Positions 14,552 through 64,000 of a DNA stretch of 64,000 nucleotides are shown piece by piece. The notes under the pieces were generated by a model. The model was not told the DNA's origin, did no database searches, and saw only the letters and a list, made by a program, of their open reading frames with translations. Every line of letters starts with the position of its first letter. Within the stretch, counting starts at the first letter, position 1. The DNA is from an uncultured Gammaproteobacteria bacterium (GTDB lineage: Bacteria; Patescibacteriota; Patescibacteriia; S139-126): the NCBI GenBank assembly GCA_964620905.1, contig CAZUKA010000001.1:298589-362588 (forward strand). Reading direction: 5' to 3'. Made by a program: the position numbers and the translations under genes.

Positions 14552-15492
14552 TGTCCAAGAAAAAAATTTTAATAATATTAGGACCAACTGCCTCAGGTAA
14601 AACTGAATTGGCTTTACGTTTGGCTAAAAAATTCAATGGCTTTGTAATATCAGCTGATTCAAGACAACTTTATAAAGAAATGAATATTGGTACGGCTAAA
14701 CCGAAGGGTAGAATATTGAATTTTGAATCTGGAATAAAGAATATAAATACAGTTTATTCTGTTCAAAATATTCCACATTTTATGCTAGATATAATAAATA
14801 CAAATAAATTATTCACTTTGGCTGATTGGCTTAAAATTACCAAACAAATATTAAACTCCAAAATTCTAAATTCTAAATTCCAGATTCCAATAATCTGTGG
14901 TGGTACTGGACTTTATATTTCAGCTCTAGTTGATAATTATGATTTACCCCAAGGTAAAGTTGATTTGCTTTTACGAAAAAAACTAAATAAGCTATCACTT
15001 TTATCATTACAAAAAAAATTAAAAAAACTTGATTTAGCTGCGTATGAAACAATCGACCAACAAAACAAGATTAAAATTATCAGAGCACTAGAATATGTTT
15101 TAACCAATCAACGTATCTTTAAACCAAAGACTAATCAAAAATCATCTTATAAATTTTTACAAATTGGATTGAATATACCACGAGAAAAACTTTACCAAAG
15201 AATAAATCAACGAGTAGATAAAATGATAAAAAACGGTCTAATCGAAGAAGTCAAACGACTTACTAAAAAATATTCAGCTAATCTACCGTCAATGTCTGGA
15301 ATTGGTTATAAACAGATTCAAATGTATTTAAATAACAAAATAGACAAAACTCAAGCAATTGAAATGATAAAAACTGATACCAGACACTATGCCAAAAGAC
15401 AACTCACTTGGTTTAAGAGAAATAAAAATATTATTTGGATTAAAAAATATCATACTGCCGAAAAATTAGTAAAAAATTTTTTACAAAATTAA
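14551..15492 (+). CDS. miaA: tRNA dimethylallyltransferase
   Basis: P-loop ILGPTASGKTELALRLA and DSRQLYKEMNIGTAKP. The ATG at 14551 overlaps the miaB stop (TAATG); the track ORF starts at an upstream TTG at 14521. Confidence 0.9.
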   Translation: MSKKKILIILGPTASGKTELALRLAKKFNGFVISADSRQLYKEMNIGTAKPKGRILNFESGIKNINTVYSVQNIPHFMLDIINTNKLFTLADWLKITKQILNSKILNSKFQIPIICGGTGLYISALVDNYDLPQGKVDLLLRKKLNKLSLLSLQKKLKKLDLAAYETIDQQNKIKIIRALEYVLTNQRIFKPKTNQKSSYKFLQIGLNIPREKLYQRINQRVDKMIKNGLIEEVKRLTKKYSANLPSMSGIGYKQIQMYLNNKIDKTQAIEMIKTDTRHYAKRQLTWFKRNKNIIWIKKYHTAEKLVKNFLQN

Positions 15493-15493
15493 A

Positions 15494-15517
15494 GGGAGCA
15501 TGCTGCTCCCTTATTTT
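15494..15517. terminator. Bidirectional intrinsic terminator between miaA and the convergent gene
   Basis: GGGAGCA-tgc-TGCTCCC hairpin followed by TTATTTT. Confidence 0.7.
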
Positions 15518-16529
15518 AATAGAATTTTTGAATTTTTTTCTTTATCATCTCAAAATTTTTTGACTTAATGTGCAACCGATCTTCCCGGTGCCAATCATTT
15601 GCCTCTTCATTCGGCAAAAGTTCAAATAATTTGAAATGTTTTTGAAATCTCCTAGGAGTAAATAAACTTATTTGATCCCCAAGTTTTCCAATTAATCTTA
15701 TTGCCACGATTGAATTATTATCACCCTGACGAAACATTTCAGCTTTCAATAACCCCAAGTTGGGTTTAATACCTTGTTGATACTCTTTTAAAATATCAAC
15801 ATAGACTAAACCTTTTTCCTTCTTAATGTTTACAAATAGATTTTGTGTTAGGATTTTATTTTGCTGATATTCAGCGGTGATGATATTTATGTAATCACTA
15901 ATTACTTCGTCATTTTGTCCGTTTTCTATCCAAACACGCAATTTCTCGTACAAAGTTTGACGATTCTCCTGACGGGAGACCGGATTAACAAAATAGCTGG
16001 GACCATAAAATGTTCCCATTAGATAAATATTCGCTAGTGGCGAATAACCATTACTATTAATTTGACCTTCAAATTTATTGGCGTCAATGTCAAGTTGATC
16101 ATAAAATTTTTGGTCAAAACAACCCTTTAAATAAGACAAGTATCCATCTAAATCATCATGAAATACAACGAAATCAACCTTTCTTTTTAACCATTCACCA
16201 ATTTCTACCATACTGGTAGCCGAGGGGGCAAACTCCCCGGGTAATACGCGGGCATTTTTACCCAAACGATCAACAATTTGATGATAGTTTGAAATATTTT
16301 TTTCTTTATTTTCGTGATGATCAATATATACCACTTCAATACCAAAATTGATGAGAGTTTTTATTAAATCAACTATTTGATCTGATGGACCTAGATCCAC
16401 CAGGGCAACTTTTTTTATTTTATTTAATAAAATAAACTCTGCTATCAATAATAGATGAATATAAGATAGAAAGGGTTGTATGGCAAACCCTTTAATACCA
16501 TTGATTATGGTATGGATTATGGGCTCCAT
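15516..16529 (-). CDS. Hypothetical protein with DHH-phosphoesterase-like motifs in non-canonical order
   Basis: Contains VVYIDHHEN (DHH motif III-like), then about 45 aa later FHDDLDGYLS (motif I-like HxDxDGxxS), and VALVDLGPSD. Confidence 0.45.
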   Translation of the reverse strand: MEPIIHTIINGIKGFAIQPFLSYIHLLLIAEFILLNKIKKVALVDLGPSDQIVDLIKTLINFGIEVVYIDHHENKEKNISNYHQIVDRLGKNARVLPGEFAPSATSMVEIGEWLKRKVDFVVFHDDLDGYLSYLKGCFDQKFYDQLDIDANKFEGQINSNGYSPLANIYLMGTFYGPSYFVNPVSRQENRQTLYEKLRVWIENGQNDEVISDYINIITAEYQQNKILTQNLFVNIKKEKGLVYVDILKEYQQGIKPNLGLLKAEMFRQGDNNSIVAIRLIGKLGDQISLFTPRRFQKHFKLFELLPNEEANDWHREDRLHIKSKNFEMIKKKIQKFY

Positions 16530-41983: not shown

Positions 41984-42436
41984 CTATAATTTGTCAATAC
42001 CTTCTCGGCTGGTTCTAATACCTTTCAACTGACGATACTTTTTGCCAACTTTGAGTCTGGCCATTTCTCTTTCCAAGTTAGCAACTACGGCGGCGTATTC
42101 TTCTTGATCATCAATTTTTTCTGTTAATAATTTTTCCGCTCGCGCTCTCGCCTCTTCTACCTTTTCTAAATCAATCTCAGTCGCTAAATCAGCAGAATCA
42201 GCTAAAATAGTGACACTATTTTTCCCCACTTCAATAAACCCACCAGAAACGGCCATAAATTCTTCGTTATTATCAACTTTGATATGTAATTCCCCCGGTG
42301 CTAGCAACGAAATCAAAGGAATGTGTTCTGGTAATACGGTAATCTCCCCTTGCCGAGTAGGGATTGAGACGCTATCAACTTGCTGGTCGAAAACCTTTCG
42401 TTCTGGGGTGGTAATTTTTAAATGAATTTTATTCAT
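41984..42436 (-). CDS. atpC: F1Fo ATP synthase epsilon subunit
   Basis: Beta-sandwich N-terminus (LKITTPERKVFDQQVDSVSIPTRQGEITVLPEHIPLISLL) and a helical C-terminus. Confidence 0.9.
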   Translation of the reverse strand: MNKIHLKITTPERKVFDQQVDSVSIPTRQGEITVLPEHIPLISLLAPGELHIKVDNNEEFMAVSGGFIEVGKNSVTILADSADLATEIDLEKVEEARARAEKLLTEKIDDQEEYAAVVANLEREMARLKVGKKYRQLKGIRTSREGIDKL

Positions 42437-42508
42437 AAATAGCTACCATGTTAATCCTAGGATATATTATTGATTAATAATCTTAATTTTTAATTCTAGA
42501 TTCTAATT

Positions 42509-44799
<2,291 letters not shown>

Positions 44800-44827
44800 A
44801 AACTAATTTTTGAAAATTTATAGCTAA

Positions 44828-46351
44828 TTATAAAGTCTTATTGAAATCTTCAATCACTTGTTTTAATTTATTTTCAATTTCTTCTGTTAACTGTTTTTCC
44901 TGGCTTAATTGTTGACGTAATTTATCACCTGAAGTTTTTAAATAGTCAATAAATTTGTCTTGCCAATTTTTTATATTATCAACTGAAATATTATCAAGAT
45001 AACCATTAGTCAAAGCATACAATACTGCCACCTGATCAACTACGTCAATTAAAACATATTGTGCCTGCTTTAAAATTTCAGTAGCTCTTTTACCAAGTTC
45101 AATCTGTTTTTTGGTAGCTTCATCCAAATCAGAACTAAACTGGGCAAAAGCTGCCAGCTCCCGATACTGGGCCATGTCTAAACGCAATTTTCCAGCCACT
45201 TTTTTCATAGCTTTAATTTGCGCTGCGCTACCAACACGCGAGACTGAAAGTCCCGCATTGATAGCTGGACGGATTCCTTGATAAAACAAATCGGATTCCA
45301 AATATATTTGCCCATCAGTGATAGAAATTACATTGGTGGGAATATAAGCCGACACGTCACCTGCCTGAGTTTCAATAATTGGCAAAGCTGTCAATGACCC
45401 TCCACCATATTTTTCCGACAGTTTAGCAGCTCGTTCCAGTAAACGGGAATGCAAATAAAACACATCACCTGGATAAGCTTCTCGGCCCGGTGGGCGTTTC
45501 AAAAGTAAAGATATTTGCCGATAGGCCCAAGCGTGTTTAGACAAATCATCATAAACTACTAAAACATCTTTACCTTGATCCATAAAATATTCCCCCATGG
45601 CACAACCAGCATAAGGTGCAATATAAGATAAGGCCGCGGGGTCAGAAGCGGAAGCTAAAACTACAATCGTATGATCCATTGCCCCAGACTCTGTCAATTT
45701 GGCAACAATTTTGGCAATTTTCGATTCTTTTTGCCCGATCGCCACATAAATACAAATGATATCCTTGCCTTTCTGATTGATGATGGTATCAATCGCAATC
45801 GCCGTCTTACCAGTTTGCCGGTCACCAATTATCAGCTCTCTTTGTCCCCGACCAATCGGAATCATACTATCGATCGCGACGATACCGGTCTGAACAGGTG
45901 TATCAACTTTCTTTCTAGTAATTACCCGCGGAGCTATTTTTTCCACTGGATACATCTTTCCTGTATCAATTGCACCTTTATTATCCAAAGCCAGTCCTAA
46001 GGGATTGACTACCCGTCCGATTAATTTTTCTCCCACAGGTACAGACAAAATTTTACCAGTACCAATGGCTCGATCGCCTTCTTTCAATTTATTGGCTTCA
46101 CCTAAAATCATCACCCCCAAAATTTCTTCTTCCAAATTCAAAGCAACTCCATACACTTTTTCTCCATTTTCGCTACTAGGAAGAAATTCAATCATTTCTG
46201 CTTGCATGGCATCATACAAACCAGCCACTCTGGCAATACCATCACCAACCTCAATAATCGTACCAAATTTTTCTTCTCGGGTTTGTAATTCGGTTTTGGT
46301 AATTTGTTTTTTCAACTCATCAATTATGTATTGTTTTGTTTCAATTGACAT
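44828..46351 (-). CDS. atpA: F1Fo ATP synthase alpha subunit
   Basis: P-loop [13 protein letters not shown], and overall alpha-subunit conservation. Confidence 0.97.
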
Positions 46352-46372
46352 ATAAATTAGACATTATATTAA

Positions 46373-46768
46373 TTAAGATAAATTTTTTTTCATCAATTTA
46401 AGCTTGCCGGACATTGTATCATCCCATAAATTATCATCCCATGATATTTGTAACCCGGCCAATAAATCTGACTCAACATTATTCTGTAATTCAATTTTAG
46501 CGTTCAGTCGTTTAGCCATAGTTTGCTCAATCAATTTTTTTTCTAGGTTAGTTAAGACCTTAGCCGAATCAACTTTAATAGTTTTAATATTATGGTGCTG
46601 ATTGTATACCTTAGAAAATTCTGACAAAATTTGCTTACCAAAATGTAAGGCTTGGTGATCATGTAAATACTGGACAAAATCAGCAACTATTTTGTTAATT
46701 TCAGTTTTATTTTTTCCCTCAACCAACCGAACTAAACTACGAGCATAATTTTTTGGTTTGATCTTCAT
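46373..46768 (-). CDS. atpH: F1Fo ATP synthase delta (OSCP) subunit, short form
   Basis: Assigned from its operon position between atpF and atpA and from OSCP-like helical sequence. 131 aa, against about 175 typical. Confidence 0.6.
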   Translation of the reverse strand: MKIKPKNYARSLVRLVEGKNKTEINKIVADFVQYLHDHQALHFGKQILSEFSKVYNQHHNIKTIKVDSAKVLTNLEKKLIEQTMAKRLNAKIELQNNVESDLLAGLQISWDDNLWDDTMSGKLKLMKKNLS

Positions 46769-46771
46769 GAT

Positions 46772-47311
46772 TTATTGTTTATCAATTTCGTTAATTACTT
46801 TTTTGATAGCCATTTCATCAATTTTTTCACTAATAAAATGTTCCAATATTTTCTTGGTTAACATAACAACCAATGCCGCTGTTTCTTGTTTTAAATCTGC
46901 TTGTAATAGTTTTTTTTCATCAACAATTTGTTGTTTAGCTTGCTCAACGATATTTTGGGCATCAACTTTAGTCTTCGCGAGTAAAGTTTGTCGCTGACTT
47001 TCCGCCGCCGCAGTTGCCTCAGTGATAATAGCTTGTGATTCTTTTTTTGCTTGAATAATCTTAGCTTCATAATCACTTTCGGTTTTAGCCAACTTTTCTT
47101 CTATTATCTTGGCTTGTTCTAAACTTTTTGCTATCTCGGCACTACGATTATCCATTGTTTTTCGTAATGGCTTAAAAGCAAACTTCCACAAAACCCCGAG
47201 CACTATAAAAAAATTGACAAGTTGAGCAAGTAATAATTTCCAATCAATATAAAATGTTTTTACTAGTTCGTCCATAAAATGAAAATTAAAATTAAATAAT
47301 ATTTTTATCAC
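46772..47311 (-). CDS. atpF: F1Fo ATP synthase subunit b
   Basis: N-terminal TM helix followed by a long charged coiled coil. Confidence 0.85.
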   Translation of the reverse strand: MIKILFNFNFHFMDELVKTFYIDWKLLLAQLVNFFIVLGVLWKFAFKPLRKTMDNRSAEIAKSLEQAKIIEEKLAKTESDYEAKIIQAKKESQAIITEATAAAESQRQTLLAKTKVDAQNIVEQAKQQIVDEKKLLQADLKQETAALVVMLTKKILEHFISEKIDEMAIKKVINEIDKQ

Positions 47312-47349
47312 GAAAGACTGAAATAATCAATCTTTCGTTCATAAAAAAA

Positions 47350-47574
<225 letters not shown>

Positions 47575-47657
47575 CTATTTATTTTCTACTCGACTTATTT
47601 GTTTTTTATTTTATAGTCGGTGAAAATAAATAATTTAATAATTAATTAGTTAACCAA

Positions 47658-48575
47658 TCAATGTTCCTCGGCAGTGGAGGCAATTGTAAAATACACCAAC
47701 GTCAACATAGCAAAAATCAAGGCCTGAATTATACCTACTATTATCTCCAAAAAAATAAACGGGATGGGTACAGCAAACGCAAAAATTGCTGCCATAGAGG
47801 CAAGTAAAACCTCACCAGCAAAAACATTACCGAACAACCTAAATGATAAAGATGCTACTTTAGCTACCTCACCAATTATTTCAATCAAACCGACAAAAAA
47901 CTTTATCGGATTGACAATTACTATTGCCGGTTCTTTCACTATCCGACCAGGGATTTCTGCCAGGGCTTTTAAATTGACAAACTTATTTAAAAAATTCCAT
48001 CCGCCAACTGTTAAAACGCCAAAAAAATTTGCAGCCAGCACTGAAAATATCGCTAAAGCCAAAGTAGTATTTAAATCAGCAGTTGCACCTCGAAACCAAG
48101 GAATAAAAGCGCTATGACCATGGCTAGTTTCAATAAAACCAATTGAACCTACCCCTGGCAACAAACCCAACCAATTATTGAGTAGTAAAAAAATAAAAAT
48201 TGTAAAAACAAAAGGAAAAATTTTTTTGGATTTTACGCTATCATGTGTGACTGAATCCATCATTTCCACGGCTTTCTCCACCATAATTTCAAATATATTT
48301 TGTATACCTTGGGGAATTTTTTTAATACTTCGGCCTAAAACAACAGCCAAAATAACCAAGACAACTACTACTGACCATGAAGAAATTAAAGAATTGGTTA
48401 CTGAAAAATTTCCAATATGAAAAATTGGTTCGGCATACAATGTGATTTCATGACTAACATGTTTATCAACTTCAACTAATTCATTACTTGATTTTTGAGC
48501 CTCGTTTTCCCCAACTATTACTGTAGCATCAACATTTTCATTATTTGCTTTATTATTATCAGAATTTTGAATCAT
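47658..48575 (-). CDS. atpB: F1Fo ATP synthase subunit a
   Basis: LSFRLFGNVFAGEVLL (conserved Arg), multi-TM. Confidence 0.9.
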   Translation of the reverse strand: MIQNSDNNKANNENVDATVIVGENEAQKSSNELVEVDKHVSHEITLYAEPIFHIGNFSVTNSLISSWSVVVVLVILAVVLGRSIKKIPQGIQNIFEIMVEKAVEMMDSVTHDSVKSKKIFPFVFTIFIFLLLNNWLGLLPGVGSIGFIETSHGHSAFIPWFRGATADLNTTLALAIFSVLAANFFGVLTVGGWNFLNKFVNLKALAEIPGRIVKEPAIVIVNPIKFFVGLIEIIGEVAKVASLSFRLFGNVFAGEVLLASMAAIFAFAVPIPFIFLEIIVGIIQALIFAMLTLVYFTIASTAEEH

Positions 48576-60011: not shown

Positions 60012-61151
60012 TTATTGCCAATATTTTTTACCTTTTAATTCAGTGGGTAAATAATCATCTTGATCATATTTATCATAACCTTGACCATACTTCAAATCTT
60101 TTAAAAATCTTGTTGGCGCGTTTCTAATTTTTAAGGGTATGGGTAAGTTGCCATATTTTTTTACATCTTCACAAGCAGTTTGCCAACCATCATAAGCACT
60201 TCGGTCTTTTTTACAAGTAGCTAAATATACCGTGCCGTGAGCTAAATTGATAGCACCTTCTGGCAAGCCAACAGTTTCAACTGCTCGAAAAACTTCATTG
60301 GCTACTACCAAAGCGGTGGGTTGAGACATGCCTATATCTTCGCTAGCAAAAATAACCATCCGACGGGCAATAAATTTTGGATCTTCCCCAGCATCTATCA
60401 TTCGTGCCAAATAGTACAGTGCGGCATTGGGTTGACCGGCTCTCATACTTTTTATAAAAGCACTAATTGTATTGTAATGCTCTTCACCTTGTTTATCATA
60501 GCGTAAAAATTTAGCTTGCAAAGTATTTTTTAAATTATCTAAATTAATTGTTTGATAAAGATTGGCGGTATTTTCAATCATAGAAATAGCTTGTCTAGCA
60601 TCACCATTGGCCATATTTAATAACCAAGTCAGTTCTTCTTTTTTTAATTTATGACCAGTACGATTGATTATTTTAATCATATCTTTATCGGTCAATTCTT
60701 GCAGTACAAAGACCCGACAACGGGAAAGTAAAGGGGCAATTATTTCAAAACTTGGGTTTTCTGTTGTTGCACCAATTAATGTTAATTGGCCACTCTCTAC
60801 AAACGGCAATAAAAAATCCTGTTGCGATTTATTGAAACGATGAATTTCATCCAAAAATAAAACTTTGGGTTTATCAGCCTTAGTAGCGATAATCTTTCTA
60901 ATATCGTCTTTACCGGCCGATACAGCCGACAATTCAAAAAGTTGAGCTTGTAGGGCCTTAACGTAAATTCGTGCCAAAGTGGTTTTTCCCACACCCGGCG
61001 GACCCCATAAAACAAATGAAAATAAATGTTTTTTGGCAATCGCCACGCGCAAAGGCTTATTGACACCCACTAAATGTTCCTGACCACAAAATTCGTCTAA
61101 ATCTTTTGGTCTGATTTTATCTGCCAATGGTTGCATATTTATATTGTACAC
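60012..61151 (-). CDS. rarA: Replication-associated recombination protein A (AAA+ ATPase MgsA/RarA)
   Basis: Walker A LWGPPGVGKTT, Walker B VLFLDEIHRFNKSQQD, sensor and C-terminal MgsA helical domain. Confidence 0.9.
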   Translation of the reverse strand: MYNINMQPLADKIRPKDLDEFCGQEHLVGVNKPLRVAIAKKHLFSFVLWGPPGVGKTTLARIYVKALQAQLFELSAVSAGKDDIRKIIATKADKPKVLFLDEIHRFNKSQQDFLLPFVESGQLTLIGATTENPSFEIIAPLLSRCRVFVLQELTDKDMIKIINRTGHKLKKEELTWLLNMANGDARQAISMIENTANLYQTINLDNLKNTLQAKFLRYDKQGEEHYNTISAFIKSMRAGQPNAALYYLARMIDAGEDPKFIARRMVIFASEDIGMSQPTALVVANEVFRAVETVGLPEGAINLAHGTVYLATCKKDRSAYDGWQTACEDVKKYGNLPIPLKIRNAPTRFLKDLKYGQGYDKYDQDDYLPTELKGKKYWQ

Positions 61152-61272
61152 ATCTAATCCAAATAAAAAAAGCTCAATAATTTTGAGTTAATTTCACTTT
61201 TAATCCAGACTCACTGATCAATATCATTTTAACTCATATTAAAAATTTAAAAAAAATGTTATAATAAAAACA

Positions 61273-61770
61273 ATGAAAAAAAATTCAAAACCAACAAATA
61301 AATTGCGAGTCGGTTGGTTCACTTTTAGTTGCTGCGAAGACAGCACTGTGCTCTTTACTGAACTTCTGAATGATCATTGGCAAGACTGGTTGCCTTATTT
61401 AGATTTTAAACACGCCAAAGTATTACAATCACGCAATGTCCTAACCGATATGGATGTGGCCTTTGTTGAAGGTGCGATTGCATCTCAAGAAAAAGAAAAA
61501 GAGTTAAAAAAAATTAGAGCCAAAACCAAAGTCTTAGTAGCAATCGGCGCCTGTGCAGTTACCGGCATGCCATCTGCTCAACGCAACGAATTTCCTGAAG
61601 AGGTTAGACAGGAAATTGATTTTTTACTCACCAAATTCAATTATGGTGATCAAGTAAAAAAACTTGAGGAACTAGTAAAAGTTGATGCCAAAGTTCCCGG
61701 TTGTCCTATGAACGAACAAAAGTTTGTTGAACTTATGGAAGAAATGTTTAAACAATTTAATATAAAATAA
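61273..61770 (+). CDS. [NiFe] hydrogenase small subunit, group-3b-like (HydD/delta-like), truncated to the proximal-cluster domain
   Basis: KLRVGWFTFSCCEDS, VAFVEGAIAS, KVLVAIGACAVTGMP, KVDAKVPGCPM align with the N-terminal half of sulfhydrogenase delta/NuoB-like small subunits. There are 4 Cys only, and 165 aa. Confidence 0.75.
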   Translation: MKKNSKPTNKLRVGWFTFSCCEDSTVLFTELLNDHWQDWLPYLDFKHAKVLQSRNVLTDMDVAFVEGAIASQEKEKELKKIRAKTKVLVAIGACAVTGMPSAQRNEFPEEVRQEIDFLLTKFNYGDQVKKLEELVKVDAKVPGCPMNEQKFVELMEEMFKQFNIK

Positions 61771-63063
61771 ATGCACCTTATTGACTTTGATTTAAATATC
61801 AATGAAATCACCAAAGTAGAAGGATCAGCGGGACTTGATGTCAAAGTTACTGGTGGTAAAGTCGAGTATGTAAAATTTAAAGTTCAAGACTATAAAAGAT
61901 TTTATACTCAAGCTATCCAAGGAAAGCCAATTGCTGCTGTCCCTCAACTCTTATCCAGAATTTGTGGCACCTGTAGTATCGCCCATCTAATTGCCAGTAT
62001 TGAAGCCGTAGAAAAAACTTTAGGTTATCAGCCCACTCCGCAAACAAAAATTCTTCGCGATCTTACCTATCACGGATTGATTATTAGAGACCACGCTCTT
62101 CATCTTTATGTTTTTGTTCTGCCAGATTTATTTAATAAAGATTCTTTACTTGAATTTGATGAAACCGACAAATTACAACACCAGCTTCTCCATGATACTT
62201 TTGCTGTCAAAAGTGTTGGCAACAACTTAGCTAAATATACCGCCGGGCGTAGTGTCCATGCGCCATTCCCAGTACCCGGAGGATTTTTAAAAATTCCTGA
62301 CAATCAAGGTAAAACTGCTTTGCTTGAAGAAATGGAAAAAGTTAGACCAGCAGTTTTGAGGTTAATCGAGCTATTTTTAAATTCTACTGACACTCTGATT
62401 CGCCCAACCAACTACGCAGCATTAACCAGTGATAATTATTCATACCTTGAAGGTAAGCTTAGCGATCTCAATGGCGTTATCGCCGAAGAAGCAGAATTTC
62501 GCAATCACCTGGAACATGTAGTACTACCTTATTCCCAAGCTTCTGCTTATACCTTTGCTGGTCAACCCTACCGCGTGGGAGCGCTGGCTAGAATAAATCT
62601 GAACCAACAAGCCCTAAACCACCGAACCAAAAGAGATTGTAGTCAGGCTCTACAAGTCTTTCCTTCTCATAATGCTTACCACAACAACTTAGCCCAAGCT
62701 ATTGAAATCTTACACTCTATTGACGACACTATTGACCTTTTGAAATCAAATAATTTTCAACCGGAAAAACCAAATAAACTCGATATCAGACAAGCCACTG
62801 GCGTAGGTGTAGTAGAAGCTCCTAGGGGAACACTTTATCATAAACTTGAAATTGATGAAAAAGGAATAGTTACTAAAGGTGAAGTAATAGTACCAACTGG
62901 CCAAAATCAAATTACTATTGAACTTGATATTGCTGAATACATCCAAAAAAATCTTGACCAACCAAAAAAAGAGCTGGCTTTAGCTTGTGAAAAAATTATC
63001 CGTGCTTATGACCCCTGTATGAGCTGCGCTTCTCATTTTTTGGAAGTTAATTGGTTAGAATAG
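61771..63063 (+). CDS. [NiFe] hydrogenase large subunit (group 3-like, 430 aa)
   Basis: N-terminal L1 motif RICGTCSIAH and C-terminal L2 motif DPCMSCASH, followed by an 8-residue extension (FLEVNWLE). The ATG directly follows the small-subunit TAA. Confidence 0.9.
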   Translation: MHLIDFDLNINEITKVEGSAGLDVKVTGGKVEYVKFKVQDYKRFYTQAIQGKPIAAVPQLLSRICGTCSIAHLIASIEAVEKTLGYQPTPQTKILRDLTYHGLIIRDHALHLYVFVLPDLFNKDSLLEFDETDKLQHQLLHDTFAVKSVGNNLAKYTAGRSVHAPFPVPGGFLKIPDNQGKTALLEEMEKVRPAVLRLIELFLNSTDTLIRPTNYAALTSDNYSYLEGKLSDLNGVIAEEAEFRNHLEHVVLPYSQASAYTFAGQPYRVGALARINLNQQALNHRTKRDCSQALQVFPSHNAYHNNLAQAIEILHSIDDTIDLLKSNNFQPEKPNKLDIRQATGVGVVEAPRGTLYHKLEIDEKGIVTKGEVIVPTGQNQITIELDIAEYIQKNLDQPKKELALACEKIIRAYDPCMSCASHFLEVNWLE

Positions 63064-63421
63064 CCACTACCTTTTTAGCTAATAATTTAATATCCCCTTG
63101 CGATGGGATACCAATAATCCTTAAGGAGAGTTCGGGATTTATTTTTTTTATAAGTTTAAGTTCAGTAGCTAGATCATAATCATGTAAACTAAACCGACGC
63201 TGGTCTTTTATTTTATCGAGATCAGTAATTAAACATACTTGATCTAAATTTTTGACTACATCAATAATCCACCAAATAGATTCGGCGGGAGGAATGATTT
63301 GCTCTTGCGGATCTTGATGAATAAATTCCGCTGCAGGCATCATTTTTTTTAAATAAGGCACCAGTTTTAGCGCCAGGGAATCTTCTGGTAAATTAGGGTT
63401 GCCAAAAACGGATATTCTCAT
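63047..63421 (-). CDS. Hydrogenase maturation endopeptidase (HycI/HybD family)
   Basis: MRISVFGNPNLPEDSLALKLVPYL...FIHQDPQEQII...WIIDVV matches the maturation protease N-terminal pattern (MrilvlGiGN.l..Ddg.G..v...L). Overlaps the large-subunit 3' end, convergent. Confidence 0.7.
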   Translation of the reverse strand: MRISVFGNPNLPEDSLALKLVPYLKKMMPAAEFIHQDPQEQIIPPAESIWWIIDVVKNLDQVCLITDLDKIKDQRRFSLHDYDLATELKLIKKINPELSLRIIGIPSQGDIKLLAKKVVAILTN

Positions 63422-64000
63422 TTTTGAAATTTAATTTTTCCTTTTTTTATGTCTTGAGGTTGTTTGAGCGATTTAATCTTTTGGGGATGTAAAATATTAT
63501 CAACGACATTCTGTGAGAAAATTTTAGCATCAGAAAAATCAATAATTATATTTTTTCTTATGATTGCCTGTTGCCAAATATTAAAATAAATATTATTTAA
63601 CTGCAACTGGTAAATGTTATCAAGTATTTCATCTTTATTTCCTACCGCCACAACTACTCCAAAATGGTGATAAACCAAATTGCCAACTTCTGCTTTTAAT
63701 TCTGTGGGTAACAAAACTTTTTTGAAAATTATATTTCCCAATGTTGTTTTTGTATGCAAAGTGACCAACCTTTTTTTAGAAACATAATCAATTTTTGTTA
63801 ATCGAGAAATATTCAATAAATGAGCCAGCGCATAGGCTGGGCCGTTCTGCCTATCAATTTGATTGTTTTTGATATCGTCAGCGTGATCCAATGCAAAACA
63901 ACGCAAAATGTCACTCTCCCCCAATTGGATTAAATGATGATGTTGGGCATATTTAGCCAAAGTTGACGGTGCGGCAGTAATAATATGTTGTCCTAAATCT
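63418..64000 (-). CDS. Hypothetical protein, partial (the reading frame stays open upstream to the window edge)
   Basis: The frame is open from 64000 down to stop TGA at 63418. The track start at 63960 is an internal TTG. ATGA overlap with the protease gene suggests co-transcription. Confidence 0.4.
   Translation of the reverse strand, partial: DLGQHIITAAPSTLAKYAQHHHLIQLGESDILRCFALDHADDIKNNQIDRQNGPAYALAHLLNISRLTKIDYVSKKRLVTLHTKTTLGNIIFKKVLLPTELKAEVGNLVYHHFGVVVAVGNKDEILDNIYQLQLNNIYFNIWQQAIIRKNIIIDFSDAKIFSQNVVDNILHPQKIKSLKQPQDIKKGKIKFQK

Follow-up and report, generated by a model that had tools for sequence, protein, structure and literature searches.

The 64,000-nucleotide stretch of contig CAZUKA010000001.1 analyzed here (the window) carries near its 3' end a compact [NiFe]-hydrogenase locus, which comprises adjoining genes for a small subunit and a large one and, convergent with them, genes for a predicted maturation endopeptidase and a putative maturation chaperone (Table 1). 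The original prediction described a 165-aa small subunit adjoined by a 430-aa large subunit with the L1 motif RICGTCSIAH and the L2 motif DPCMSCASH, and both the coordinates and the motifs were confirmed. The large-subunit ATG directly abuts the stop codon of the small-subunit gene, leaving no gap, and the 3' ends of the large-subunit and protease genes overlap by 17 nt. rarA had also been placed correctly as the nearest upstream gene, on the opposite strand. The region past the window end was read from an identical 15.9-kb public Logan contig (L001; window coordinate = L001 coordinate + 61154), and the DNA covered for this genome was the 64-kb window plus 10 kb beyond it, which makes about 74 kb; the contig itself measures 717 kb or more. 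A downstream open reading frame (ORF) had been reported as unassigned. It is present on the opposite strand, as described, but the 180-aa version called from an internal TTG (63418 to 63960, minus strand) is cut by the window; the true start lies beyond the window end, and the protein is 252 aa long with a HypC-like domain.

Table 1. Features of the hydrogenase locus and its immediate surroundings (window coordinates; "window-equivalent" marks positions past the window end)
Feature	Coordinates	Strand	Evidence or remark
MgsA/RarA	60012..61151	-	Pfam MgsA_C 1.3e-47; upstream of small subunit
[NiFe]-hydrogenase small subunit, truncated, 165 aa	61273..61770	+	ORF list; Pfam Oxidored_q6 7.5e-20
[NiFe]-hydrogenase large (catalytic) subunit, 430 aa, predicted group 3b-related hyd2 type	61771..63063	+	Pfam NiFeSe_Hases 4e-29
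Predicted compact hydrogenase maturation endopeptidase, 124 aa	63047..63421	-	Fold level; convergent with large-subunit gene
Putative hydrogenase maturation chaperone, C-terminal ~193 codons of 252-aa gene	63418..64000	-	Gene reaches window-equivalent 64176
EamA transporter, 298 aa	window-equivalent 64163-65059	- (same strand as 252-aa gene)	L001
HypC-like gene, 60 aa	window-equivalent 65074-65256 (L001 3920-4102)	-	Pfam HupF_HypC, sub-threshold

The large subunit was compared with the NCBIfam models, and the best matches were the sulfhydrogenase alpha subunit ShyA (2.9e-68, 231 bits) and HydA (4.1e-63, 214 bits), with weaker scores for VhuA (133 bits) and FrhA (117 bits). Because the ShyA and HydA scores are far under the equivalog cut-offs (700/880 bits), the protein is predicted to be related to the group 3b enzymes but not orthologous to them. 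Its best matches in the PDB were Thermococcus kodakarensis HyhL (5YXY, 1e-57) and Pyrococcus furiosus SHI alpha (9NEZ), and together these models and structures uphold the proposal of a 3b-like catalytic large subunit paired with a short small subunit. In [NiFe] hydrogenases the L1 (RxCGxCxxxH) and L2 (DPCxxCxxH/R) motifs give the four Cys ligands of the Ni-Fe site, and the Glu of the xEG motif and the Arg of the PRG motif lie near the active site. L1 occupies residues 63 to 72 of the window protein and L2 residues 414 to 422. Inspection of 17 diverse relatives revealed that R63, C65, C68, H72, C416, C419, H422, E17, and R352 are invariant, as are the EG motif (E17-G18) and the PRG motif (P351-R352-G353). 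This retention of the four metal-binding Cys and of both motifs bears directly on the refuting condition named in the original prediction, placement of the subunit in a non-catalytic clade, and it speaks against such a placement. The L2 His is followed by an 8-aa tail (FLEVNWLE), and a short tail of the form H-F-L-x-V-x-W is conserved at this position in the relatives.

More than 6,000 homologues of the large subunit were found, the best of which belong to Patescibacteria; the best 120 are 53 to 100% identical to it and are labeled Patescibacteria, Moraniibacteriota, WWE3, or Paceibacter. Comparison with three relatives (89 to 92% identical) gave dN/dS values of 0.02 to 0.08 for both subunits and 0.09 to 0.16 for the protease and 252-aa genes. 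The hydrogenase genes are under strong purifying selection.

The small subunit scored best against the NCBIfam model HydD (2e-14), again far under the equivalog cut-off, and its best structural relative by sequence is P. furiosus SHI delta. It aligns solely to residues 3 to 144 of this 261-aa protein. Family lengths are mostly about 160 to 190 aa, and each of the 67 members examined stops about 20 aa past the GCP motif. There are only four widely conserved Cys positions in these 67 sequences: C20 (66 members), C21 (59 members), C94, and C144 (all 67 members each). Because the SHI delta match stops at residue 144, the family has this four-Cys pattern, and the C terminus is short, the small subunit is predicted to consist of the N-terminal, proximal-cluster domain only and to hold one [4Fe-4S] cluster. 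The first cluster motif, (S/T)F(S/T)C(C/S)ED, lies at 61327 to 61344 of the window (small-subunit residues 19 to 24) and presents C-C-E-D where SHI delta has C-x-x-C. Ser replaces the second Cys in 7 of the 67 members, and the invariant Asp aligns to the second Cys of the SHI delta CxxC. Since the second Cys varies and an Asp sits at the canonical Cys position, the fourth ligand of the proximal cluster may be a non-standard one. No twin-arginine (Tat) signal is present in the small subunit, and the enzyme is therefore predicted to be cytoplasmic.

Group 3b-related large subunits from the Candidate Phyla Radiation (CPR) have been divided into two types, hyd1 and hyd2 (Jaffe et al. 2020, BMC Biol 18:69, PMC7304191). 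In that study hyd2 was set apart by a relatively long branch, a truncated small subunit (mean, 164 aa), and beta and gamma subunits that are not proximal. A family with hypC homology was common to hyd1 and hyd2, PF07992 flavoproteins or Fe-S proteins were found near some hyd2 loci, and the function of hyd2 was called uncertain, with its redox partner left open (PMC7304191). The window locus matches every stated feature and, as judged from its sequence, is of the CPR-specific hyd2 type: it comes from Patescibacteria, its large subunit is 3b related, its small subunit has about the published length, beta and gamma are not co-located, and a hypC-like family is nearby. The assignment draws on these published features and on our own neighbor-joining (NJ) tree. 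In the NJ tree the window sequence groups with 86 relatives that have short small subunits, and a long stem separates this group from the hyd1-like outgroup. We found no essential difference from the published hyd2 loci; the window's subclade is without a flavoprotein or ferredoxin gene, and unlike most hyd2 loci the window has a 252-aa HypC-domain family at the position where DUF6390 usually sits. The arrangement is not peculiar to one genome; it is the defining trait of the hyd2 clade published in 2020 (PMC7304191). For this lineage the lack of partner subunits is an established, still unexplained feature rather than something newly discovered.

In order to examine how the locus is organized elsewhere, 89 loci (given below as L numbers) were collected, their ORFs were called and clustered, family HMMs were built, and the six-frame translations were rescanned. 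Dereplication at 95% large-subunit identity gave 77 clusters, and the counts that follow are over dereplicated loci with enough flank. The small-subunit gene is directly upstream of the large-subunit gene in 58 of 66 loci, and a convergent protease gene lies within 1.5 kb in 55 of 63. DUF6390 is present in 38 of 56 loci and the 252-aa family occupies the same slot in 4 of 56, so that one or the other is found in 42 of 56; EamA is found in 32 of 48 and a small HypC-like gene in 13 of 46. Thus, across about 77 dereplicated loci, HypC, EamA, DUF6390 or the 252-aa family, and the protease form a conserved convergent module. In a few loci (L016, L059, L065, L076, and others) the small- and large-subunit genes, which elsewhere adjoin or overlap, are separated by an insert of 0.8 to 3 kb that holds an extra ORF of about 290 to 570 aa.

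The protease of this module had been described as a convergent HycI-like gene, and at the level of fold its designation as a maturation endopeptidase was upheld. The 124-aa protein is predicted to adopt the alpha/beta fold of hydrogenase maturation endopeptidases, with T. kodakarensis HybD (5IJA) a top match. The metal-binding triad of Escherichia coli HybD is formed by E16, D62, and H93. D14, D54, and H80 are invariant in 39 members of the window protease family, and their spacing is compatible with the HybD triad. The assignment required a fold search: no Pfam match was obtained at an E value of 1 or below, the NCBIfam model NiFeSe_H2_mat gave an E value of 0.006 (16 bits versus a cut-off of 190), and a profile of the 39 homologues run against PDB sequences found no peptidase.

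Structure prediction suggested that the 252-aa protein is composed of an N-terminal helical domain bearing Cys and His residues and a C-terminal HypC-like OB-fold domain with a conserved His, and we regard it as a putative hydrogenase maturation chaperone. It has no Pfam match. The family is small and confined to Patescibacteria, and its link to HypC consists of the fold and weak Pfam matches in 2 of 29 members; against a local HypC profile, hhalign gave a probability of 0.5%. The 252-aa ORF was also considered as a member of DUF6390 (PF19927), and this was not borne out: BLASTP gave no significant relationship, and hhalign against a profile of locus-derived DUF6390 proteins gave a probability of 4.7 to 5% over 23 to 24 columns. 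What the two families share is the genomic slot and a HypC-like C-terminal motif. For the HypC-like end of DUF6390, 7 of 30 members match Pfam HupF_HypC (best, 4.4e-5), the three best PDB matches of the DUF6390 profile are HypC proteins, and the hhalign probability against the local HypC profile is 39%. The invariant internal Cys of DUF6390 aligns to HypC Cys2, and its GD-V-S-x-H-W-G aligns to GDWVIVHTGF.

Beyond the 252-aa gene and the EamA gene lies the 60-aa HypC-like gene, about 1.1 kb past the window end and 2 kb downstream of the large-subunit gene. The protein starts with MCFQLSK and matches PF01455 with an E value of 2.8e-5 (24.6 bits versus a gathering threshold of 28.5), and its orthologues in L002 to L004 start with MCFQ(I/L)PKKV. 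With this gene so close, and with the HypC-like domain in the 252-aa ORF, the statement that no hyp genes are adjacent proves to be an artifact of where the window ends. Met-Cys is retained at the N terminus of the small CPR HypC-like proteins, but the conserved HypC His is missing from them (L001 and L002 to L004, L050, L052, L080, L082, L086, L089, and L090). DUF6390, the 252-aa family, and u174 (a hyd2-linked family described below) retain a His in the equivalent G-D-x-V-x-x-H motif.

At L022 (11726 to 13405, minus strand), a 559-aa ORF consists of EamA (residues 12 to 290) fused in frame to DUF6390 (residues 318 to 558), which argues that the EamA transporter and the HypC-domain protein work together. 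The EamA/252-aa/HypC trio was found inside the canonical four-subunit CPR 3b locus L090 and also beside hyd2 in Komeilibacteria; the module is therefore hydrogenase linked and not a chance neighbor. L090 encodes beta and gamma together with a small subunit of 268 aa and a large subunit of 418 aa that stops exactly at the L2 His, and no protease gene is annotated nearby. The same locus has a 135-aa ORF (14699 to 15106, plus strand) made of a HypA-like N terminus (about 62 aa) and an exact copy of the last 73 or so residues of the adjacent large subunit, as well as a second HypA-like ORF of 85 aa with the same N terminus (15339 to 15596, plus strand). This arrangement is either a local duplication or an assembly artifact.

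It is conceivable, though doubtful, that this lineage-specific module matures the hydrogenases of Patescibacteria, both hyd2 and four-subunit enzymes, and replaces part of HypABCDEF. Such a system would combine a small His-less HypC, a dedicated EamA transporter, and an N-terminally extended HypC-domain protein, and its role might be, for example, metal or ligand-precursor delivery in reduced genomes. Crude motif scans did not find HypD, HypE, or HypF signatures in about 1 Mb of hydrogenase flanks. The literature on hyp genes in CPR, DUF6390, and newer hyd2 work amounted to Jaffe et al. 2020 and Valentin-Alvarado 2024, the latter of which concerns four-subunit CPR 3b enzymes, and DUF6390 is mentioned in no paper in the literature searched.

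On the other side of the hydrogenase genes, the relatives provided information on a possible electron partner. An FAD oxidoreductase (FdR) gene lies immediately upstream of the small-subunit gene on the same strand in 15 of 48 loci and within 10 kb in 22 of 48, and a gene for an 87- to 95-aa ferredoxin (Fd) is present in 16 of 42. The gap between the FdR and small-subunit genes has a median of 2 nt and falls between -8 and +8 in 17 of 19 cases, and for this reason the two are considered to be one operon. A typical full locus reads Fd > FdR > small > large > < protease < DUF6390 < EamA < HypC. The FdR contains Pyr_redox_2 and Rubredoxin_C/Reductase_C domains, and the proteins most similar to it are ferredoxin, putidaredoxin, and rubredoxin reductases; the ferredoxin is of the single-cluster Fer4_15/13 type (C-x-x-A-x-x-C...CP). 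In 9 of 37 loci, a 2-oxoacid:ferredoxin oxidoreductase (OFOR) together with an ADP-forming acetyl coenzyme A synthetase is encoded divergently upstream. With a hyd1-like large subunit as the root of the NJ tree, loci of the Fd/FdR and OFOR kinds made up a large derived clade, although this polarity is tentative, as it comes from the NJ tree only. Neither the accessory module nor the translationally coupled Fd-FdR operon, present in a third of loci, is described in the literature that was searched, and both are testable leads.

Further families recur in these neighborhoods. u174, a Cys-bearing family of about 150 to 200 aa with no Pfam match, lies directly downstream of the large-subunit gene on the same strand in 11 of 63 loci, mostly OFOR-linked ones (L023, L030, L055, L067, L068, L075, L079, L081, L083, and L085); its C terminus has a HypC-like G-D-x-V-x-x-H-R motif, for which the hhalign probability is only 3%. 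Genes for a NifU-like protein and a cysteine desulfurase lie within 10 kb of hyd2 in 12 to 13 loci (L005 to L007, L028, L037, L049, L060, L068, L070, L074, L077, L082, and L083) and possibly supply Fe-S to hyd2.

The original prediction also held that the locus has no electron-transfer partner. For the beta/gamma diaphorase this is borne out in the window and the 10 kb beyond it: tblastn of the 64-kb window with beta, gamma, and HypA from L090 and with the hyd2-linked neighbor families hit only the hydrogenase genes and the 252-aa ORF, and the L001 gene map showed no beta or gamma gene past the window end. Crude motif scans for ferredoxin (including 2x[4Fe-4S]) and for HypA/B/D/E/F signatures gave no convincing match in either the window or the loci. 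As a general statement about the enzyme type the claim does not stand, since in 15 of 48 dereplicated hyd2 loci a ferredoxin and a ferredoxin:NAD(P) reductase are encoded operonically upstream.

The identity of the four genes, the truncated small subunit, the conservation, the accessory module, and the neighbor statistics are the observations on which we base our reading of the locus. With a probability of roughly 0.6, it encodes a functional, cytoplasmic, minimal heterodimeric hydrogenase of the hyd2 type, in which a Ni-Fe large subunit and a one-cluster small subunit work with a soluble ferredoxin as partner. The large subunit would have a normal Ni-Fe site. It would be matured by the convergent set of HybD-like endopeptidase, 252-aa HypC-domain protein, EamA transporter, and small HypC-like protein, and the endopeptidase would presumably trim the short conserved C-terminal tail. 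Because the small subunit is cut down to its proximal-cluster domain, electrons would enter or leave at the proximal cluster and pass directly between it and a separate soluble carrier. The Fd-FdR and OFOR neighbors in the relatives point to a soluble ferredoxin in this role, probably a small low-potential one. At Fd-FdR loci, H2 would be linked to NAD(P)(H), and the operon would be a functional stand-in for the beta/gamma diaphorase; at OFOR loci, H2 would be linked to 2-oxoacid oxidation and substrate-level ATP synthesis. Fermentative reducing equivalents might be vented as H2, or H2 might be taken up reversibly. In the window's genome, the ferredoxin would be supplied from elsewhere and not encoded beside the hydrogenase.

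Several points weigh against this reading. Genes for ferredoxin, FdR, and OFOR were looked for and not found in the 64-kb window and the adjoining 10 kb, which leaves the partner unobserved for this genome. In the NJ tree, the window's subclade (L001 to L004, then L005 to L007 and L008 to L014) falls outside the Fd/FdR-OFOR clade and is without those genes, and the inference from the relatives may not transfer to it. The search for hypABDEF and for the partner covered about 74 kb, out of a contig that is 717 kb or longer. Finally, the function of hyd2 enzymes is read from sequence.

We considered whether the locus is instead part of a split operon for a NAD(P)-linked group 3b (sulf)hydrogenase of the ordinary kind, with the genes for its beta and gamma diaphorase subunits located elsewhere in the genome. 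The nearest characterized relatives of the large subunit are 3b enzymes, the part of the genome inspected is only about 10% of the whole, and proteins with NAD-binding motifs occur near some hyd2 loci (PMC7304191). The small subunit, however, lacks the whole C-terminal domain, with the medial and distal clusters, which both SHI delta (261 aa) and the L090 small subunit (268 aa) possess. Nor were beta or gamma genes seen when the gene maps for all 89 hyd2 loci were inspected (flanks totaling about 1 Mb, read by map and not with beta/gamma profiles, the L090 queries having been run against the window only). At L090, where such genes do occur, the small subunit found with them is full length and the large subunit has just 29% identity. 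We consider a split operon unlikely.

A main role as a sulfur or polysulfide reductase of the sulfhydrogenase kind, or another redox role independent of H2, appears quite improbable. Sulfhydrogenase was the first description of 3b enzymes, and a part for CPR 3b enzymes in sulfur cycling has been discussed, but canonical 3b sulfur reduction has been linked to the beta/gamma, sulfite-reductase-like subunits (PMC7304191), which were not found here, and conserved sulfur-metabolism genes were not seen beside hyd2. Least probable, and already largely refuted, is a decaying remnant or a protein that is sensory or otherwise non-catalytic. Loss of function could be suggested by the missing partners and by how small the small subunit is, but every Ni-Fe ligand is invariant, as are EG and PRG, the tail is conserved, dN/dS is low (0.02 to 0.08), a dedicated endopeptidase and HypC-type genes are conserved, and the gene maps show no histidine kinase or regulator genes recurring beside hyd2.

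Translations read by eye revealed that the first 59 kb of the window consist of housekeeping genes, including dnaE, thrS, miaB/A, gatB, thymidylate genes, rplA/K, gyrB, pheST, a UvrD-like helicase gene, an F-type ATPase operon, metG, and glyS; the F-type ATP synthase operon spans approximately 41984 to 48575 on the minus strand. Beyond the HypC-like gene, L001 continues with ClpB, tgt, and further housekeeping genes. GC skew is negative over positions 1 to 64000 (cumulative, -4.6), and nearly all genes are on the minus strand, the two hydrogenase genes being among the few exceptions. A promoter scan of 61000 to 64000 gave nothing above chance, and a terminator scan was uninformative. Two of the relatives, L002 and L003 (CAZINS010000001.1 and CAZBLW010000001.1), share 20 kb of synteny with both the window and L004, a Candidatus Paceibacter metagenome-assembled genome, and because of this synteny their label, "uncultured Gammaproteobacteria bacterium," is probably wrong.

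The value of the window is confirmatory, as its key oddity was published in 2020. The interest of the type is broader: with a catalytic and a one-cluster subunit, hyd2 may be among the simplest natural [NiFe] hydrogenases, and it is widespread in an enormous uncultivated radiation. The identity of its partner would clarify redox balance and H2 exchange with hosts in episymbiotic ultra-small bacteria, and hyd2 would offer a compact scaffold for engineering.

Among characterized enzymes, the group 3b heterotetramers (P. furiosus SHI, 9NEZ and 9E15; T. kodakarensis Hyh, 5YXY) gave the best sequence matches for both subunits. They resemble the predicted window enzyme in being cytoplasmic, in the very short C-terminal tail of the large subunit, and in maturation by a HybD-type protease. 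In contrast to these enzymes, the window small subunit is about 100 C-terminal residues shorter, with the medial and distal clusters missing (3b delta subunits have about 250 to 260 aa), beta and gamma were not found, and C-C-E-D takes the place of C-x-x-C as the first cluster motif. In size, the small subunit resembles its homologues HoxY, of the NAD-reducing group 3d enzyme (5XF9 chain C, 189 aa; E value, 3.7e-10), and HydS, of the Acetomicrobium bifurcating hydrogenase HydABCSL (7T2R chain E, 179 aa; E value, 2.6e-8). HoxY, HydS, and the NuoB/group 4 small subunits carry the proximal [4Fe-4S] cluster only and pass electrons to a separate Fe-S protein. Enzymes of this kind are wired stably to NuoEFG-like or membrane modules of the same operon, whereas hyd2 has none, and at most a ferredoxin and FdR. 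The accessory proteins show similar departures. Compared with HybD and HycI, the window protease has the same fold and a candidate Asp/Asp/His triad but is about 30 residues shorter and is undetected by Pfam. The small HypC-like protein starts with Met-Cys, as do HypC, HybG, and HupF, but is without the HypC His, and DUF6390 and the 252-aa family carry their HypC-like domain internally, after a Cys/His-bearing domain of 120 to 150 aa. Unlike canonical [NiFe] maturation, the hyd2 module includes a dedicated EamA transporter.

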